DNA of 21,243 nt. Source: a virus. Lineage: Duplodnaviria > Heunggongvirae > Uroviricota > Caudoviricetes. The position numbers and the translations under genes are program-made. Positions 17-14,672 of the stretch are shown here, piece after piece. The DNA is taken from positions 1-21,243 of the IMG/VR virus record IMGVR_UViG_2698536657_000004; one strand, 5' to 3'. The notes under the pieces were generated by a model. That model was not told where the DNA came from. It worked only from the letters and a program-made list of their open reading frames with translations, and did not search any database. Each line of letters begins with the position of its first letter. Within the stretch, counting starts at the first letter, position 1.

Positions 17-544
17 TCACTTAGCCGCGTGTCCACTATTGCTGGGTAAGATCACATTACCCAGACCGGGAAAGACATTTCTCTCTAAGCTGCGCCAGAT
101 GTCTGCTGCATGGTCTTGTGAGATACCTGATGTCTTTACCTTCTCATCTAACCATTTCCGCGCTACGGCTTGGAGAGTGTGCTCAGTAGCACTCTTTAAT
201 GCCTTCGCCTTATCGTTGTTATGGATTTGGGGATCAACACCATTTGCCAGAAAGGAGAGATATTCATCACGTAAGGCTCTGGCTCTTGCAAGGGTAAGGT
301 GAGGATATGTCCCAAGGCTCATTTTGGTTCTTTTCTTGCTCACTGGTACTGCATACCTGAAATACCAATTTTTCTTGCCTCCTTTCGCCAAAGGAGCGAT
401 TCGTAGAATCAGACCATCACCGTCAAACAAGTTGATTTCTTTATCGGCTGGCTTGGTGCTTTTGATTTCAGTGTCAGTGAGCTTCTTAGCGATTTTTGCC
501 ATTTTGGGACCCTCGGTTTTTGGACCCTTCTTAGTGGGTCCCAT
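17..544 (-). pseudogene. P4-type tyrosine integrase, N-terminal arm-binding portion only (175 codons, then stop at 17-19)
   Basis: Translation shows the N-terminal DNA-binding region typical of P4/CP4-57-type integrases (NLFDGDGLILRIAPLAKGGKKNWYFRY...LGTYPHLTLARARALRDEY). Family members are about 400 aa and no catalytic domain is present in frame. Only 16 nt lie upstream of the stop, so frameshift versus true truncation cannot be resolved. Confidence 0.45.
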
Positions 545-3370: not shown

Positions 3371-3614
3371 CAGACTTTCTTACCTGTTTAAGTAATTGGT
3401 TGAACATAACACTCAGGGGATTGCTGTATCCAAACGGCAGATTGTTTACGCGATACAGAATCATTTTGTTTTCTGCTCCGGTTTTTACAATTAATCCTTT
3501 CCACAATAGCAGTGATAATTGATTACCGACGGAAACGGTACTTTTTCCAAGAGCGAGAGCTATATCCTGACGACTGCAATCCGGATTTTCCCGGATATAT
3601 TCAATAACGGTCAT
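3360..3614 (-). CDS. Small winged-helix DNA-binding protein (84 aa)
   Basis: HTH-like segment SRQDIALALGKSTVSVGNQLSLLLWKGLI; SD aagga 5 nt upstream of the ATG. Confidence 0.5.
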   Translation of the reverse strand: MTVIEYIRENPDCSRQDIALALGKSTVSVGNQLSLLLWKGLIVKTGAENKMILYRVNNLPFGYSNPLSVMFNQLLKQVRKSDGN

Positions 3615-3624
3615 TGGATTCCTT

Positions 3625-4206
3625 TTAGTTAATAGCGGTTTCTGATTGCATGCTGTGAGTATTCATTTCGTTAATCATTTCATTCAGAAGGAGTTCGAGT
3701 CCTTCTCGGCCCATACCTGAAAGAATGAAACCTTTATCTGGGCATGTAATGAGCATTTTCTGATAAAGAAACAGCGCTCTACCCATACCTTCTGCCTCGC
3801 CGTATTTTTGAATTAAATTCCATTCAATATACTGTTGTAAGGCAAAACGAATGGGACCGGGATATATCGTCATAAACCCATGCTTCCCGTTATATACTAC
3901 GGCGCGATCTGTTGTTCCGTGCTCATTCAGGATATCAATTGTGCCGTTCTTGTCTTCTTCTTCGTTGATGAATGTCGTCACATACAACCATCGCCACTGG
4001 GCAACCTTCATCTCAACCGGAAGTTTTCCCAGTAATCCTGCTTCGTCAGCTTGCGCGAGACACTGAAGGATACGTAAACCTCGCACATTAGGAGTATCGA
4101 ATTCTCCAGCATCCAGACGGCGGATTGCGTCGTGATAATCAATAGTCATACTGCCTGTTCGTATACCATTGGCTGTTGCTTCAGCCTGGAATTCAGCGTA
4201 TTGCAT
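3625..4206 (-). CDS. Hypothetical protein (193 aa), no recognisable domain
   Basis: Long ORF with SD gaggaa 8 nt upstream; start lies 6 nt after the upstream gene's stop. Confidence 0.6.
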   Translation of the reverse strand: MQYAEFQAEATANGIRTGSMTIDYHDAIRRLDAGEFDTPNVRGLRILQCLAQADEAGLLGKLPVEMKVAQWRWLYVTTFINEEEDKNGTIDILNEHGTTDRAVVYNGKHGFMTIYPGPIRFALQQYIEWNLIQKYGEAEGMGRALFLYQKMLITCPDKGFILSGMGREGLELLLNEMINEMNTHSMQSETAIN

Positions 4207-4211
4207 GAAAT

Positions 4212-4394
4212 TTATTCCTCATCTTCATCAGCTGGTGGAGTAACCTCATATCCTGCTTGCTTTACCATGAACAGGAATGTTGAAAAACTTCCTACAAGTT
4301 CATCGTCATGAACATGGCGAATAAATATTACTTTCCCGTTTTTGATGGTCAGCAATACTCTGGTTTGTTCGTGTTCTGCTGTTTTCTGATGCAT
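4212..4394 (-). CDS. Hypothetical small protein (60 aa)
   Basis: SD gggag 6 nt upstream of the ATG; tightly packed in the minus-strand operon. Confidence 0.45.
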   Translation of the reverse strand: MHQKTAEHEQTRVLLTIKNGKVIFIRHVHDDELVGSFSTFLFMVKQAGYEVTPPADEDEE

Positions 4395-4396
4395 TA

Positions 4397-4510
4397 TTAT
4401 CTCCCGTATGCTTTACGCAGAAACAAGCATGCAATATGCATGTAATTTTCACCGTATTGTGCAATAAGGCAGGCGGTCTTGTGTGATGCCATATTCTTTA
4501 TAAAAGTCAT
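4397..4510 (-). CDS. Hypothetical micro-protein (37 aa, MTFIKNMASHKTACLIAQYGENYMHIACLFLRKAYGR), below the ORF-track cutoff
   Basis: Perfect AGGAGG 7 nt upstream of the ATG; its stop overlaps the SD of the next gene. Confidence 0.25.
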   Translation of the reverse strand: MTFIKNMASHKTACLIAQYGENYMHIACLFLRKAYGR

Positions 4511-4592
4511 AATAAAACCTCCTGTGGATTAAGGGTGTGATAATCCCCGGCGATTAAGCCGTAATATATTATTCGGATATGACTTGTTTTAT

Positions 4593-4793
4593 TTAACTGG
4601 ATAGTTCTTTTTCAGCTGCTGCTTCAGCATAGCAACGTGCAAATTCAAGAACTTCATCACCTGTTCTTTTTATTGCGTCGTTGTCTGACATTTGTAATAC
4701 GACAACTGCGCATAATAAATCATGGATATTGTTTGCAAAGGAATCAGGTGCCAGGCATAAACCTTCATACTTATCATGGATATTGCCAGTCAT
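4593..4793 (-). CDS. Hypothetical small protein (66 aa)
   Basis: SD aaggag 8 nt upstream of the ATG at 4793. Confidence 0.45.
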   Translation of the reverse strand: MTGNIHDKYEGLCLAPDSFANNIHDLLCAVVVLQMSDNDAIKRTGDEVLEFARCYAEAAAEKELSS

Positions 4794-4798
4794 TGCTG

Positions 4799-5470
4799 CT
4801 ACTCCTTTGCCAGGGATTTACCGGTTAACAGCCACATCAGGTCACAGTTAAGTGCGCTGGCCAGAGGTACTATCTGATCGGCAGGAACTTCGCACACGCC
4901 GCATTCCCAGTCGTTTATGGGGTCGCTGTAGGTGTGAATCATGCGTGCCAGGTCTGCTTCTGTTAAGCCCAGTTTTTTACGAGCGCTTTTGATGCGCGCA
5001 CCAATACTTTCTTCCCGTGGTTCTGGCGCATTTACGCGAATAACAGACGCGCTATCTTTTTCATCCAGCAAAGAAAGCGGATCGCACCCAAGGACGTTTG
5101 CCAGGGGGATAAGCATGCTGATGGTTGGTTCGAATTCTCCGCTCTCCCATTGCAGGATGATCTCTTCATCGAGATCAAGCAGTCTGGCAAGTTCGGTGGT
5201 CGTTAAGCCGCAGGCTTCACGTTGGGCGCGGATTTTTCCAAAAAAGTGACCATACGAAACCATAGCTTTTGCCTCACATAGTTTTTCTGCAAAAATTGAT
5301 GCAGTTTCTTCTGTTTTTTGCAGAGAACGCATCAGGCATCTGATTGCATTATAAACCCTCTCACTTTCTGCTCCGTTTTCTGACATGTAGGAATAGATCA
5401 TTCCAAGCAGCGAACCGCCTTCTTGTATTTGTGCTGCAATTTCATCCATCACCTTAACTGCATGCTTCAT
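4799..5470 (-). CDS. Dual helix-turn-helix (XRE/Cro-C1 type) DNA-binding protein, first gene downstream of the leftward early promoter
   Basis: Two HTH segments (GLTTTELARLLDLDEEIILQWESGE and GLTEADLARMIHTYSDPINDWECG); start placed at ATG 5470 with AGGAGG 5 nt upstream; the track ORF extends to an upstream TTG. Confidence 0.65.
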   Translation of the reverse strand: MKHAVKVMDEIAAQIQEGGSLLGMIYSYMSENGAESERVYNAIRCLMRSLQKTEETASIFAEKLCEAKAMVSYGHFFGKIRAQREACGLTTTELARLLDLDEEIILQWESGEFEPTISMLIPLANVLGCDPLSLLDEKDSASVIRVNAPEPREESIGARIKSARKKLGLTEADLARMIHTYSDPINDWECGVCEVPADQIVPLASALNCDLMWLLTGKSLAKE

Positions 5471-5495
5471 ATGAGCCTCCTGTGGTTTTAATTTT

Positions 5496-5538
5496 ACAAT
5501 AGCCAAAGCGTTTAGTTATGTCAATCGCTATAGCTATG
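5496..5538 (-). promoter_or_regulatory. Candidate pL promoter with overlapping operator oL
   Basis: On the minus strand a perfect -35 TTGACA (5519-5524), 17-nt spacer and -10 TATTGT (5496-5501); adjacent palindrome GCTATAGC inside tcaatcgctatag, a 13-mer repeated at oR. Confidence 0.45.
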
Positions 5539-5599
5539 TGTTTTGGGCAGCAAAGAACAGATTATGCGAGAAATGAGACGATACGTAGGGAGTTGAGAT

Positions 5600-5633
5600 A
5601 CAGGAAAGTAGAGCAGCTGCGCAATACAGCTGC
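5600..5633 (-). terminator. Candidate terminator hairpin just downstream of cI
   Basis: Inverted repeat gcagctg/cagctgc (5613-5633) followed on the minus strand by a moderately U-rich tract. Confidence 0.3.
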
Positions 5634-5646
5634 CGGTGATGTTGAC

Positions 5647-6351
5647 TTATCCGACCCTGTTATACTGGATTGACTGATGAATGAGAACTTTCCCCATTAT
5701 GAATAGATGTTCTTCAGCTGATTCACTTATAAACCATTCCTTGTAGGCCGGATTGTCTGATATAACAGCAAGTTGCATCCCTTGCATTTGTAGGCGTTTG
5801 ATATGGAAGGTGTGCCCAAAAATAAAAATATAGATACCGTCAGTTTCAAAATTTCTGACGGATACGTCGACAAATACCTGATCTCCTGCACACAGAGTAG
5901 GAGCCATGCTGTCGCCATCAACTGTTATCATCTTTATGATATTTGCTGGCCTGCTACAGAACAGGCGTCTTGCAGCATCATGTGAAAATTCTATGGCATG
6001 GACCGTTTCTGCAAAATCTGACACAAGGAATGTTCCCGGCCCTGCGCTGGCTGCTATATCCAGGACCTCAACACGAAAAACATCCTTATCATTTTCCAGT
6101 GGGGAATATGATACCTGTGGTGTCGGATTGCAGGATGTGCTTTCTTCTGGGGTCATAGGACCAACACCGTACGATAGCCACTCGGGGCGCACGTTCAGGA
6201 TATTGGCTATCTCCACAACTTTCCTGGAGCCTGTGGCACCATTAACCAGTTTATTGACGCTCGATTGAGCCATGCCAACCTCTCTGGCCAGTTTTCCCTG
6301 CGAGTATCCGCGGATAGTCATAGCTAACTGTAGCCTGTCTGAAAAGCTCAT
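5647..6351 (-). CDS. cI: CI-type prophage repressor (N-terminal HTH plus C-terminal LexA-like S24 autopeptidase domain)
   Basis: HTH segment QGKLAREVGMAQSSVNKLVNG; S24 motifs GDSMAPTL and HIKRL; start placed at ATG 6351 with AAGGAGG 4 nt upstream; diverges from cro. Confidence 0.85.
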   Translation of the reverse strand: MSFSDRLQLAMTIRGYSQGKLAREVGMAQSSVNKLVNGATGSRKVVEIANILNVRPEWLSYGVGPMTPEESTSCNPTPQVSYSPLENDKDVFRVEVLDIAASAGPGTFLVSDFAETVHAIEFSHDAARRLFCSRPANIIKMITVDGDSMAPTLCAGDQVFVDVSVRNFETDGIYIFIFGHTFHIKRLQMQGMQLAVISDNPAYKEWFISESAEEHLFIMGKVLIHQSIQYNRVG

Positions 6352-6376
6352 AAGTCCTCCTTTTTCTGCCCTTTTA

Positions 6377-6449
6377 GTGTATCGCCTTAGCGATATATAC
6401 ACAAACCGCTTTTTCGTACATTGCAATCGCTTAAATCAATCGCTATAGT
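6377..6449. promoter_or_regulatory. Immunity region oR with candidate pR (rightward) and pRM (leftward)
   Basis: pR: -35 TTGCAA (6421-6426), 17-nt spacer, -10 TATAGT (6444-6449). Palindrome TATCGCcttaGCGATA at 6380-6395. Direct repeats caatcgc inside the pR spacer. The 13-mer tcaatcgctatag is shared with oL. Confidence 0.5.
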
Positions 6450-6474
6450 GAATAAAATCAGGTTGGAGGTCGAT

Positions 6475-6738
6475 ATGAAAAATGAAGGTATAGCCAAGGC
6501 TGTCGATATTGCGGGAAGCCAGATTGCTCTGGCCAGGCGTTGCGGTCGCGCGCAGTCAACAATTTGCGACTGGCTGAATGGGAAGAAAAAAATTTCTCCT
6601 GAATTTGTTCCGTCTCTGGTTAAGGCGGTTGATGGGAAAGTCCAGGCGTATGAATTTCGTCCTGATCTACCGGAGCTTTTCCCACACCCAGGCTTAGCGC
6701 ACACAGAAGATGGAGTGTACGAAGGAGATAAACAGTGA
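6475..6738 (+). CDS. cro: Cro-like repressor of the YdaS HTH family (87 aa)
   Basis: Translation matches the remembered YdaS-type motif pattern; GGAGG 5 nt upstream of ATG 6475; divergent from cI. Confidence 0.8.
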   Translation: MKNEGIAKAVDIAGSQIALARRCGRAQSTICDWLNGKKKISPEFVPSLVKAVDGKVQAYEFRPDLPELFPHPGLAHTEDGVYEGDKQ

Positions 6739-7442
6739 ATACAACAATTTTTACCGACAAAGCATCCATGACCAGCATTGAGATTGCCGAGCTGGTAGGT
6801 AGCCGCCATGACAGTGTGAAGAGAGCAATTGAACGTATTGCTGAACGATGTGTTACCCAACTTCCACCAATGGTGGAAGTTGAGAATAAACAATCACTTA
6901 GTCCTAATAAATATACTAAGGCGTACATCTTCGAAGGCGAACAAGGCAAACGCGACAGCATCATTGTTGTCGCACAGCTTTGCCCTGAATTCACCGCTCG
7001 CCTGGTAGACCGCTGGCGCGAACTGGAAGAACAAATCCGCAGACCAATGAGCCAGATCGAAATGGTTGCTGCAATGGCGCTTGAAGCCGTTCGCCAACAA
7101 AGACGTCTTGAGCAGGTGGAAGAGAAAGTCACCCACGTTACTGAAACCGTCGAGCAAATCAAAAGAGGCACCATACGCGATGGTTATGCAGGCTATCGTC
7201 AGCTGGTGGCGAAAACGGGTATGTCAGATGCGAAATGCCGCAATCTGGTGAACGCATATCAGATCCCTACCGACACCCATGAATTTATGACACCAGATGG
7301 TTTGTTGTCGCGTCGCGCGATTGTTGCAGTAGAACCTTTCATGGCTGCTTTCCGTCACATGATGAGTGAAGCAGAACCACGAGGTACTCGCTGGTATCAC
7401 CCGAAAATGGGACTGTTCCAGGCGCTGGGCTGGCAGGTGTGA
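6735..7442 (+). CDS. Rha-family phage regulatory protein with C-terminal extension (235 aa)
   Basis: N-terminal segment SMTSIEIAELVGSRHDSVKRAIERI typical of Rha domains; GTG start overlapping the cro stop (GTGA), SD aggag 7 nt upstream. Confidence 0.7.
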   Translation: MNTTIFTDKASMTSIEIAELVGSRHDSVKRAIERIAERCVTQLPPMVEVENKQSLSPNKYTKAYIFEGEQGKRDSIIVVAQLCPEFTARLVDRWRELEEQIRRPMSQIEMVAAMALEAVRQQRRLEQVEEKVTHVTETVEQIKRGTIRDGYAGYRQLVAKTGMSDAKCRNLVNAYQIPTDTHEFMTPDGLLSRRAIVAVEPFMAAFRHMMSEAEPRGTRWYHPKMGLFQALGWQV

Positions 7443-7461
7443 TTATGCTCACAGGTAACAC

Positions 7462-7632
7462 ATGCAAGTACTCAATCGCTGGTTCCGTGATGGAAGAGGG
7501 CGTCGCGTCCACGTTATACGCTGGGAGCCTGAAACACAGCGGGTTATTTACCTGCGTGATGGTTATCCGGATGAGTGCTTCAGTCCGTTGTGGCTGTTTC
7601 GTCGTGATTTTGTTGAGTGCGAAGCGCCGTAA
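7462..7632 (+). CDS. Hypothetical small protein (56 aa, MQVLNRWFRDGRGRRVHVIRWEPETQRVIYLRDGYPDECFSPLWLFRRDFVECEAP), below the ORF-track cutoff
   Basis: Hand translation in a different frame from the long track ORF 7439-8287; protein-like composition; ends upstream of a terminator. Confidence 0.4.
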   Translation: MQVLNRWFRDGRGRRVHVIRWEPETQRVIYLRDGYPDECFSPLWLFRRDFVECEAP

Positions 7633-7732
7633 GGCCTGTGCTGTTTACAATATTGATTTCCGGCGGTACACTTTTCTTATAGTGGCAAAATCCACTATCG
7701 GGAGTGAGACCCCGGAATTGATCGAGGCGACA

Positions 7733-7758
7733 AACGACGCGCCAGCGTCTTTTTTGTT
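7733..7758 (+). terminator. Rho-independent terminator (tR1-like) in the rightward early operon
   Basis: Hairpin gacgc-gcca-gcgtc (7736-7749) followed by ttttttg. Confidence 0.6.
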
Positions 7759-7783
7759 GTCAGTGCCTGCGCACACCAGAATT

Positions 7784-7924
7784 ATGGTGGGCTGGGCAGG
7801 GGAACCGAAAGGTTCGCCGGTTTCCTTGATCGCCGGTAGTCTCAACCCTGTCCAGTCCGCCACCAGCGAGATTGAGACCTCCTGTGGTGGATATTGTCAT
7901 TCACCGATCAAGGAGGCTGCCATT
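7784..7924 (+). ncRNA. Candidate structured cis-regulatory 5' leader, copy A, upstream of the second Rha gene
   Basis: 141 nt, aligns without gaps to copy B; nested helices; GAACC-GAAA-GGUUC hairpin at 7802-7815; CCUCC (7878-7882) complementary to the downstream SD GGAGG (7912-7916). Confidence 0.45.
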
Positions 7925-8287
7925 ATGGCTACGATCCCCGCACACCCATACCTCAAAATCGAGGTCGTCAACGGCAGAGCCGTTATATTCTCCCTGTATG
8001 TCGCCTGTCACTTTAAGCGCATGCATAAGAATATCGTCGATCGAATCGAATATCTCAACTGCTCACGCGAATTTCTTACCCGCAACTTTATACCTGGCAC
8101 TTATCGCGCCTATGGCGATTCAGTGCGCGGTTATTACATCACCCGTGATGGTCTGATGATGCTACAGCTAGGGTTAAGTCTGCGCACCATGCGGTACTAC
8201 GAGAGCTGCATTAAAGCACTACATGAGGTTGAAACCTTCCAGGGCCACTCTGCTTTCCGTCGTAATCAACGGGAGGTGCATCAATGA
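7925..8287 (+). CDS. Rha-family phage regulatory protein, divergent paralog (120 aa)
   Basis: Rha-domain start pattern MATIPAHPYLKIEVVNGRAVIFSLYVACHFKRMHKNIVDRI; AAGGAGG 8 nt upstream of ATG 7925; the track ORF extends upstream in frame, alternative start ATG 7784. Confidence 0.55.
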   Translation: MATIPAHPYLKIEVVNGRAVIFSLYVACHFKRMHKNIVDRIEYLNCSREFLTRNFIPGTYRAYGDSVRGYYITRDGLMMLQLGLSLRTMRYYESCIKALHEVETFQGHSAFRRNQREVHQ

Positions 8288-8442
8288 AGCGCCACCAGCA
8301 TATTGATTCTGCAATTCCGGAACGTTACACTGTGAAGGCACCTTATAAAGCGGGTGCCGGGATTGGCGTCCTGAAATTGATTACTGAGCAAAACCGCGCT
8401 CATGCGGTTTTTTCGTACCATGAGCATTGCTACGCCCAAATT

Positions 8443-8583
8443 ATGGTGGGGCGTACAGGGCCGACTTCGGTCGGGCCGGGTTCGGTAGTCTCCGGTAACG
8501 CCAACCCTGTACGTCTCACCACCTCTGTGATTGGCGTCCCATGTGGTGAGTTTTCTAAAAAACTGACTACCGGGGCTGTCACC
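8443..8583 (+). ncRNA. Candidate structured cis-regulatory 5' leader, copy B, upstream of the third Rha gene
   Basis: Same length and conserved blocks as copy A; hairpin here is CCGAC-UUCG-GUCGG (8461-8474); GUCCC (8536-8540) complementary to GGGGC (8572-8576) at the ribosome-binding region. Confidence 0.45.
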
Positions 8584-9147
8584 ATGACTACTCTCCCAAC
8601 CCTCGTTCAACCTGAAATTGCCATTGTTAATGGGCAGGCTGTTACAACTTCATTGGCTGTTGCCGACTTCTTCTCCAAACGTCATGACGATGTTCTGAAA
8701 AAGATCCGTATCTTGGATTGTTCGTCAGAGTTTTGTGCCCGCAATTTTGCGGAGACATCGATTTCGCTAAATCAACCGAATGGTGGTACACGCAAACTTC
8801 CCTGCTACCAAATAACCCGCGACGGTTTTGCGTTTCTTGCTATGGGCTTCACTGGTAAACGTGCAGCCCGGTTTAAAGAGGCATACATCAATGCTTTTAA
8901 CCAGATGGAGAGAAGCTTATCAGGAGCTGGCGCGGCTGACATGTCATCTGTCGCACAAAATGCCAGAGGCGTATACCTGCATTTGCGTGAAATCCATCAA
9001 ATCTGGAAAAGCCAGCTTTATCCCATGCTTAAGGCCGTTGAATCTCCGCTGGCTAGCAAACTGTACGACCGTGTAGGTGATGCTGTTTTTGGGGCCGCAC
9101 TTGTTGATTCCAGACTGAACGGTTCTGACAAGGAGGTGCGCCCATGA
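8584..9147 (+). CDS. Rha-family phage regulatory protein (187 aa)
   Basis: Canonical Rha-domain pattern IAIVNGQAVTTSLAVADFFSKRHDDVLKKIRIL...YQITRDGFAFLAMGFTGKRAARFKEAYINAFNQME; start placed at ATG 8584, alternative in-frame ATG 8443. Confidence 0.65.
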   Translation: MTTLPTLVQPEIAIVNGQAVTTSLAVADFFSKRHDDVLKKIRILDCSSEFCARNFAETSISLNQPNGGTRKLPCYQITRDGFAFLAMGFTGKRAARFKEAYINAFNQMERSLSGAGAADMSSVAQNARGVYLHLREIHQIWKSQLYPMLKAVESPLASKLYDRVGDAVFGAALVDSRLNGSDKEVRP

Positions 9148-14262: not shown

Positions 14263-14279
14263 TTTTGTGGAGAAAGTTA

Positions 14280-14672
14280 ATGCGTGATATTCAGATGGTT
14301 CTTGAGCGCTGGGGAGCGTGGGCGGCAAGTGGTAACGCCGGGGTGGACTATTCTCCGATAGCAGCCGGATTCAAAGGTCTTTTACCATCTACAACTAAAC
14401 CTCGCCCGGCCTGCAGCGATGATGACGGTCTTATTATCGAAAACTGCCTTACGCGCCTGAAGAAGAAAAAACCGGACGAGTATTCGCTGCTGGTGGCGCA
14501 TTATCTGCTGCGCATATCAAAAAGGCAGATTGCCAGAACAAGAAAGAAGAGCGAAAAGGCAATACGAATTGAGATGCGGATTGCTGAAGGATTTATTGAT
14601 GGATGTCTGTCGATGCTGGGTGTAAGGCTGGAGATGGACGACTGGCTGCCCAAAAAAGTAAGAAATGATTAG
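14280..14672 (+). CDS. Q: Late-gene antiterminator Q (short Q family)
   Basis: N-terminal MRDIQMVLERWGAWAASG matches remembered short Q proteins; SD ggagaaag upstream of ATG 14280; followed by a strong terminator and the late-region genes. Confidence 0.65.
   Translation: MRDIQMVLERWGAWAASGNAGVDYSPIAAGFKGLLPSTTKPRPACSDDDGLIIENCLTRLKKKKPDEYSLLVAHYLLRISKRQIARTRKKSEKAIRIEMRIAEGFIDGCLSMLGVRLEMDDWLPKKVRND

Follow-up and report, generated by a model that had tools for sequence, protein, structure and literature searches.

A gene for a helical hairpin joined to tandem helix-turn-helix domains leads the leftward early operon of a prophage with no recognisable N

Most knowledge of the regulation of Shiga toxin (Stx) phages comes from the N-dependent cascade of phage lambda, which phages of the Eru7 type lack. 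Eru7 is reported to be the most widespread type of Stx phage in Western Europe (PMC8951638), differences in the early region set induction efficiency and Stx2 output (bioRxiv 10.1101/2024.03.06.583675), and Eru1 phages were described without N, cII and cIII by Llarena et al. (PMC8044961), so that N-less Stx phages are known in principle. Here, a computational analysis is reported of a minus-strand gene at 4799..5470 of a 21,243-nucleotide (nt) Caudoviricetes sequence (IMG/VR record IMGVR_UViG_2698536657_000004, positions 1 to 21,243), the whole of which is called the window. The gene encodes a protein of 223 amino acids (aa) and stands in the topological place of N, opening the leftward early operon under the control of CI. 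It represents an uncharacterised family in which a helical hairpin precedes one to three helix-turn-helix (HTH) domains, and in which the junction of the immunity module lies inside the gene at about residue 80. The window is 94–95% identical over 2.5 kb to Stx1a prophages at yecE in Escherichia coli O145 and other E. coli strains that make Shiga toxin (STEC), and the phages that carry close relatives of the gene are those that Fagerlund et al. (PMC8951638) call 'Eru7'. The reading favoured below, to which a probability of about 0.4 is given, is that the product acts as an early XRE-family regulator of transcription initiation and would dimerise through its hairpin.

The reading frame extends over 4799–5506, with its stop codon at 4799–4801, and an AGGAGG 5 nt ahead of the ATG at 5470 marks the true start inside it. 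A preliminary description of this DNA, made from the sequence alone, had credited the product with two XRE-type HTH domains and denied it any likeness to the small, arginine-rich N, and both statements held. The protein is 223 aa long and acidic (isoelectric point (pI) 4.8, net charge −12), and Pfam HTH_3 matches it twice, at residues 80–131 and 157–219 (E 2e-16; 60 bits versus a gathering cut-off of 23), with HTH_19 adding a match on the second domain (E 2e-14); it belongs to the XRE, or Cro/CI, superfamily of HTH proteins. An AlphaFold2 (AF2) model, built on a 13-sequence alignment, shows an N-terminal helical hairpin (residues 2–70, 5261..5467; helices 2–32 and 37–70), HTH1 (residues 74–134, 5069..5251; recognition helix LDEEIILQWE; supported by Pfam as well), a disordered linker (residues 138–152, 5015..5059; predicted local distance difference test (pLDDT) below 50) and HTH2 (residues 156–216, 4823..5005), all on the minus strand. 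The mean pLDDT is 75.6 and the predicted template modelling score 0.34, the latter being what would be expected of such a beads-on-a-string layout. HTH2, on which the HTH_19 match falls, resembles the repressors 434 cI (E 6e-6 in a sequence search of the PDB) and P22 C2 (TM 0.9, root-mean-square deviation 0.8 Å and 33% identity in Foldseek), while Foldseek searches of the PDB and BFVD with the whole protein matched only single XRE domains (P22 C2, 434 cI, 434 Cro) and generic phage HTH proteins, some of them tandem. Among PHROG families, 4836, labelled 'CII-like regulator', and 4739 (unknown) fit the protein best, each at E ~1e-52, and residues 1–72 match separate small PHROG families of unknown function. 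Pfam found no Peptidase_S24 in the protein, unlike in the product of the neighbouring gene at 5647–6351, and scans against NCBIfam and PADLOC gave generic HTH matches only, all below threshold.

Directly upstream lies the candidate early leftward promoter pL, TTGACA-17-TATTGT (5496..5524, minus strand; −35 at 5524–5519, −10 at 5501–5496), which agrees with the consensus at 10 of 12 positions, is the best sigma-70-like site within 3500–8500 and leaves a leader of ~19 nt before the gene. Two palindromes of the oL type, at 5499–5512 (two mismatches) and 5524–5537 (one mismatch), overlap its −10 and the edge of its −35. With up to two mismatches, the palindrome ATCGC-N4-GCGAT has only four sites in the 21 kb, two at pL and two between cI and cro; with up to three, there are 17 matches versus 7.2 expected, a number that none of 100 shuffles reached. 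The oR-type pair (span 6381..6452) consists of a perfect copy at 6381–6394 and another at 6439–6452, and an 18-nt stretch is common to 5516–5533 and 6431–6448. These operators separate a cI-type repressor gene (5647..6351, minus strand; 234 aa with HTH and S24 peptidase; Peptidase_S24 2e-17, HTH_3, PHROG 4) from a cro-like gene with a YdaS-type HTH (6475..6738, plus strand; Pfam YdaS_toxin 1.7e-15), past which the rightward order is Rha, two Ash/Rha ORFs (open reading frames), O-like, DnaC, DnaB, DUF968/HNH and Q at 14265–14672. The place of the gene as the first downstream of pL was thereby confirmed, and because the promoter directly upstream carries palindromes matching the cI–cro operators, the gene is assigned to CI control. 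As the promoter stands behind CI operators, the gene should be off in the lysogen and switched on as soon as repression is lifted; in the favoured reading it would be silent in the lysogen, and its product would be made right after infection or induction.

The arrangement recurs well beyond the window. Five other immunity types show the same order of cI, a terminator or hairpin (often canonical), a strong promoter and the HTH gene, the promoter carrying motifs of that phage's own cI–cro region, and the layout is also present in Salmonella prophages. At every locus examined, the gene lies 97–190 nt downstream of cI on the same strand, a position that is constant across E. coli and Salmonella, S24 and non-S24 repressors, YdaS- and P22-type cro, and Rha and KilA-N neighbours.

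This layout bears on two proposals that would have the gene act in the lysogen. A second repressor, as the preliminary description had suggested, is unlikely in the sense of one maintaining lysogeny: CI operators precede the gene, as does a terminator in relatives, and in such a place it cannot perform that task. The other proposal takes the gene for the occupant of a cI-downstream 'moron' slot, expressed in the lysogen as an exclusion or immunity gene, that is, a second repressor directed against other phages. The slot is a known hotspot for exclusion genes, among them rexAB of lambda and bstA of BTP1, and the gene does lie there at every locus; in addition, the hairpin 3' of the cI stop codon (5612..5634, minus strand; dG −15 kcal/mol, z −2.9), a weak candidate for the terminator that would keep the cI transcript apart from pL, lacks a clean U-tract, so that some read-through from pRM is conceivable. 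However, the operators and pL stand between cI and the gene and not past it, relatives carry canonical terminators where the window has this hairpin, and PADLOC, as noted, returned nothing but generic HTH matches, which leaves an exclusion gene highly improbable.

As to N itself, no N-family match was found among all early ORFs on both sides (Pfam, PHROG), no arginine-rich N-terminus was found in the early region by a scan of all ORFs of at least 40 aa, whose top scorers were out-of-frame ORFs in the late region, and tblastn with lambda N produced no match better than E 0.3. Nor did the search for nut sites that the preliminary description had called for return any: boxA-like nonamers occur at chance level (14 versus 13.5 expected), neither early transcription unit contains a boxB-like hairpin (5–7 bp stem, G-purine pentaloop), and Rfam gave no nut- or put-type RNA in the window. 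The phage has no recognisable N and no nut sites, and its early leftward transcription therefore cannot be lambda-N-like, as had been surmised. Because no strong minus-strand terminator was found between pL and int, leftward transcription probably needs no antitermination at all.

The 223-aa protein might still be a functional analogue of N, a processive antiterminator or Rho antagonist by which the IsrK terminators are passed on the way to the replication genes and Q. Its map position is that of N, two strong IsrK terminators do lie upstream of the replication genes and Q in the rightward operon, and no antiterminator other than Q was found in the window. Against this stand the acidity of the protein and its want of an arginine-rich motif, the absence of nut- or put-like elements from the window, and the promoter-like sites that the IsrK genes have of their own; the XRE fold is not known to include an antiterminator. 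The Gifsy-1 IsrK terminator, moreover, is reported to be partly read through without such a factor (PMC4825925). An N analogue is thus exceedingly improbable, and in any mechanistic sense the protein is not one. The suggested tie to read-through of a terminator cited earlier as 7733–7758 found no support either; this terminator (7736–7749, plus strand) is that of an IsrK small RNA gene.

The search for relatives returned 152 homologues, in which an N-terminal helical module of ~70 aa is followed by one HTH domain (136–148 aa in total), two (213–265 aa, the majority) or three (304 aa, in Salmonella), a variation in repeat number that would be expected if repeated sites are read. Over its C-terminal two-thirds, the 223-aa protein is 77–91% identical to a 'transcriptional regulator' beside cI in the long-tailed Stx1a and Stx2a phages of O145:H28 (comparison records LC5678xx) and 57% identical to L10 of phiP27 (138 aa, annotated 'unknown'), a single-HTH member whose only HTH is HTH1; full-length homologues in Salmonella share 33–35% identity. 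A scan of one genome per species yielded generic XRE proteins only, and the family, which occurs in prophages of E. coli, Shigella and Salmonella, appears to be confined to prophages of enteric bacteria. In one IMG/VR locus (L017) the gene is split into a 147-aa product and a separate HTH2 ORF, and two others (L010, L046) encode 154-aa products without the hairpin, which may reflect frameshifts or be single-domain variants that occur naturally. In the literature, no functional study of the hairpin-and-HTH family was found, and the papers on Eru types and on O145:H28 phages do not discuss the gene; a 'Clade VIII CI' with an extra HTH in PMC8951638 might correspond to its product. The refuting case set out in the preliminary description, a common repressor paralog unconnected with early transcription, applies by one half: the family is common in E. 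coli prophages, but its gene is always the pL leader. The protein is an architectural variant of a very well-known kind, from a family common in medically relevant prophages.

The gene is also where two modules of the genome meet. In blastn comparisons with all five other immunity types, homology (80–92% at the nucleotide level) starts at 5224–5233, at about residues 80–83, and the right junction falls at ~6676–6736, at the 3' end of cro; the immunity module therefore comprises the hairpin, pL/oL, cI, oR and cro. Among 46 loci, the N-terminus falls into six sequence types, whose pairing with five cI types shows no exception, and the HTH pair is common to all hairpin types and 77–97% identical across the five cI types. 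A strict specificity of each hairpin for its cognate CI was considered and lost ground, as the one-to-one pairing can be put down to linkage, and largely is, and as one pair of phages has CI 94% identical versus 51% for the hairpin (other pairs, 93% versus 77% and 97% versus 88%). Judged by these alignments, no other element of the region evolves as fast as the hairpin. The window's type 0 hairpin has only six remote matches among 1.8 billion representative proteins, and some of these homologues are free-standing proteins of 81–140 aa. A single superfamily for all hairpin types was not upheld by hhalign, which finds nothing between type 0 and the others and only a weak signal (probability 50%) between types 3 and 4, taken with a 66-aa neighbouring protein, and types 1, 2 and 5.

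This neighbour is the next gene in the operon (4593..4793, minus strand; PHROG 4587) and encodes an acidic protein (pI 4.4) that AF2 folds into a helical hairpin standing on its own. It shows a weak PHROG match to the N-terminus of PHROG 4836 and, along 44 aa, shares 48% identity with the N-terminal hairpin of a type 3 member (P0015, E 3e-8); in type 3 and 4 relatives, its identity to the regulator's hairpin is 36–48%. A fold search with it gave no matches. The gene is kept in 31 of 46 loci, and in at least one more (L038) the sequence forms the C-terminal half of a 121-aa protein; in two loci of the N5/N1 type (L040, L047), a similar ORF starts in downstream DNA, so that these too probably carry the sequence as the C-terminal half of a longer protein. 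Within the gene, a 13-nt exact direct repeat, CAATATCCATGAT, lies on the minus strand at 4719–4731 and 4773–4785 and encodes N-I-H-D twice, and a related palindromic copy occurs at 4431–4442, inside the 37-codon ORF farther downstream; the repeat may have arisen by duplication within the gene, or it may be an embedded site.

In the favoured reading, the 223-aa gene would be the leader of a CI-repressed leftward operon in an N-less lambdoid prophage of the phiP27 or 'Eru7' type. The hairpin would be the probable dimerisation module and the two HTH domains would be flexibly linked, so that a hairpin-mediated dimer might present up to four HTH modules and act on transcription initiation. Because the HTH pair is near-identical across differing cI, cro and operators, its targets would have to be DNA or partners common to all immunity types and could not be the immunity operators; they may lie in the left arm, in the Rha and IsrK–C4 region, or in the host. 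The free hairpin of 66 aa is a plausible modulator of the oligomeric state, by analogy with SinI and SinR. Dimerisation, DNA binding, and the role and direction of regulation are all put forward here as conjecture.

Several observations weigh against this reading, foremost the charge of the HTH domains. HTH1 has pI 4.2 and net charge −7, and its D-E-E sits at the base-reading positions held by S-N-V in P22 C2 and Q-Q-S in 434 cI; HTH2 (pI 5.6) likewise has Asp at recognition positions, in the helix Y-S-D-P-I-N-D-W-E. In a background of 58 XRE domains from unrelated loci of the one-genome-per-species scan, net charge per 60 aa averages +3.2 (sd 2.9, minimum −4.2), compared with −6.9 for HTH1 and −0.9 for HTH2, and the first four positions of the recognition helix contain no acidic residue in 48 domains, one in 10 and two or more never, compared with three in HTH1 and one in HTH2. 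HTH2 thus falls at the 5th percentile for net charge, and HTH1 lies beyond the whole range, with no background domain at −5 or lower and none with more than one acidic residue. Mainly on account of these acidic recognition helices, DNA binding is not to be assumed, and sequence-specific binding in the E. coli branch is doubtful. Nor was a convincing binding site found by a repeat scan, by the conservation profile of the Rha 5' region or in CAATATCCATGAT, with 14 matches versus 7.2 expected and its two exact copies encoding the repeated NIHD peptide. Finally, the 66-aa protein shows no detectable kinship to the window's own type 0 hairpin (hhalign probability below 1%, BLASTP E 0.28).

The charge anomaly is what gives some weight to the antirepressor-type regulator that the preliminary description had offered as a second option, and such a regulator is possible. 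It is most readily conceived as an HTH-fold decoy in the E. coli branch, whose acidic faces bind the basic DNA-binding surface of another protein, be it an XRE repressor (the phage's own CI or that of a co-resident prophage), LexA, or a host nucleoid or transcription factor; it would fix the phage in lytic development shortly after the opening of pL, and oligomerisation or the choice of partner would be determined by the hairpin and the free 66-aa hairpin. MOR of phage TP901-1, an HTH protein that blocks the DNA-binding domain of CI, is a precedent. A decoy agrees with the −6.9 of HTH1 over a background of +3.2 and its three acidic recognition positions, with the low pI of both the whole protein and its 66-aa partner, with the sequence LDLDEEII(I/L)QWESGE, which is invariant in all E. 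coli members, single-HTH ones included, and with a hairpin that outpaces cI (51% versus 94% identity) as an interaction surface under diversifying pressure would. On the other hand, conservation is complete both for the fold and for the basic IGxRIxxxR motif of helix 1, the Salmonella full-length homologues have ordinary basic HTH domains (pI 9.2–9.9) and resemble ordinary DNA binders, and the HTH pair stays constant while the HTH domains of CI differ, which makes a CI-specific decoy hard to picture; the computational work identified no partner. A decoy is accordingly rated as on the unlikely side, though well short of negligible.

A special case of the favoured reading is a CII-like establishment factor, an early activator of cI and/or int transcription after infection that would stand in for the missing cII and cIII. 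The label of PHROG 4836, 'CII-like regulator', points that way, as does the annotation of the homologue in phage ASU11 as 'putative CII repressor'; no cII or cIII homologue was found in the early operons (Pfam, PHROG), the gene is expressed early from pL, and a target in the conserved 5' end of Rha, just to the right of cro, would suit the conserved HTH pair. These labels are annotation only, however, and the protein has no match to Phage_CII (Pfam); neither direct repeats of the CII type nor a candidate pRE were found in the Rha 5' region, and the acidic recognition helices speak against DNA binding here as well. Phages like P2, furthermore, establish lysogeny without CII. A CII-like role therefore seems rather improbable.

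A bolder idea, given a low probability, is that the E. coli hairpin-and-HTH proteins form a new class of DNA-mimicking early decoys that capture a repressor or a host DNA- or RNA-binding factor, with the hairpins as a switch in the manner of SinI and SinR. If so, the class would tip N-less Stx-type prophages into lytic growth and thereby bring about the release of toxin, and the regulator's hairpin together with the 66-aa hairpin would insulate the co-resident prophages of STEC from one another. Whether the 223-aa protein binds DNA or protein bears on the choice between lysogeny and toxin-releasing lysis in non-lambdoid Stx phages, and the binding mode would also explain why the hairpin diverges far faster than cI. 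On present evidence, the protein nonetheless looks like an ordinary regulator of the XRE family that has certain unusual traits.

The Shine-Dalgarno context of the gene, CCACAGGAGG (5476..5485, minus strand; an exact 10-mer), is repeated at 4518–4527, ahead of a 37-codon ORF (4397..4510, minus strand; annotated in Stx1_499), and has its only other exact copy in the window, also on the minus strand, at 7878–7887. The duplication before the two genes, which the preliminary description had singled out, is thus exact in the window, but the closest relatives of the same immunity have CAACAGGAGG in place of CCACAGGAGG, and other immunity types have unrelated ribosome-binding sites. As the exact 10-mer differs even within the same immunity, a regulatory signal was ruled out, and the duplication has no demonstrable meaning beyond a strong Shine-Dalgarno sequence.

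Read on the plus strand, the third copy is an anti-Shine-Dalgarno-like element, CCUCCUGUGG, located 11 nt after the first C4 RNA gene and ~25 nt before the Shine-Dalgarno sequence of a Rha-type ORF, and in the window it is exactly complementary to the ribosome-binding sites of both the tandem-HTH gene and the 37-codon ORF. Its opposite strand is conserved as CCAC[AC]GGAGG in some relatives, as an exact copy in one (L035), as CCACCGGAGG in ~10 loci and as CCAAAGGAGG in others. Pairing in trans with the pL ribosome-binding sites was dropped as an explanation, given that the element is conserved in the C4/ant module and the pL sites are not; the element probably sequesters the ribosome-binding site of ant, and its match to the pL sites is likely coincidental.

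Around it, where the rightward early operon passes from Rha to the replication genes, lie two tandem IsrK and C4 modules at 7679–7867 and 8338–8526, with isrK genes at 7679–7755 (61 bits) and 8338–8414 (59 bits) and C4 antisense RNA genes at 7780–7867 (83 bits) and 8439–8526 (82 bits), all on the plus strand (Rfam). They are a duplicated antirepressor control layer like immI of P1/P7 and Gifsy-1. A promoter-like TTTACA-17-TACACT (7644–7672, plus strand) ends 7 nt before the IsrK 5' end, and the second isrK is preceded by a homologous promoter-like stretch. The Pfam Phage_ASH matches of the ORFs at 7439–8287 and 8284–9147 fall exactly on the isrK and C4 genes (7673–7948 and 8326–8604), and the 'Ash domain' and PGAP 'ash family protein' calls in relatives may be what results from translating genes for non-coding RNA; the genuine Rha-type ORFs probably begin downstream of C4, one example being the ATG at 7925 with its Shine-Dalgarno sequence at 7911–7917. 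A further ORF of 56 aa (MQVLNRWFRDGRGRR...) lies between the Rha gene and isrK (7462–7632, plus strand).

Toward the right end of the window, downstream of Q and a DNA methylase gene, three tRNA genes (16324–16570), the small RNA STnc100 (17996–18208, 157 bits) and a 651-aa ORF (18417–20372) follow on the plus strand. No ORF of the size of Stx subunit A lies between the tRNA genes and STnc100, and the phage looks like an stx-negative relative of Stx phages. At the left end, just outside the prophage integrase gene (828–2000), a 175-aa ORF (17–544, minus strand), which by eye resembles the N-terminal part of a P4-type integrase, may be left over from a different integrative element at that site.

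Among known systems, the closest are L10 of phiP27 and the regulators of Eru7-type phages (PHROG 4836 and 4739), which belong to the same family, occupy the same slot downstream of cI and are 57–91% identical in the HTH part, in phages with the same backbone of cro, Rha, Ash/Rha, O-like, DnaC, DnaB and Q; the 223-aa protein differs from them in its type 0 hairpin, and L10 has a single HTH. With the DNA-binding domains of 434 cI, P22 C2 and DicA it shares the fold and the motifs IGxRIxxxR and WE..EP, but it adds an N-terminal hairpin, a tandem arrangement and acidic recognition helices, and it has no S24 or C-terminal dimerisation domain, and its gene lies behind the operators instead of regulating them from a divergent position; it is not a member of the DicA model NF007257 (65.9 bits versus a cut-off of 101). 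Lambda N, P22 gp24 and the N of phage 21 have only the map position of first pL gene in common with it, since it is acidic, folded and 223 aa long, and has no arginine-rich motif, nut sites or profile similarity to them. Wmk of the Wolbachia prophage WO is likewise phage-encoded with two XRE HTH domains, but the NCBIfam match reaches 40.7 bits versus a cut-off of 300 with one HTH aligned, and Wmk has no hairpin, so that the 223-aa protein is not a member. In SinR and SinI of Bacillus subtilis, an XRE regulator with a helical oligomerisation module is adjoined by a small free copy of that module. The type 3 and 4 relatives, which pair an HTH regulator with a homologous free hairpin (36–48% identity), offer a possible parallel to this pair, with the difference that the module is N-terminal in the hairpin-and-HTH family and C-terminal in SinR.

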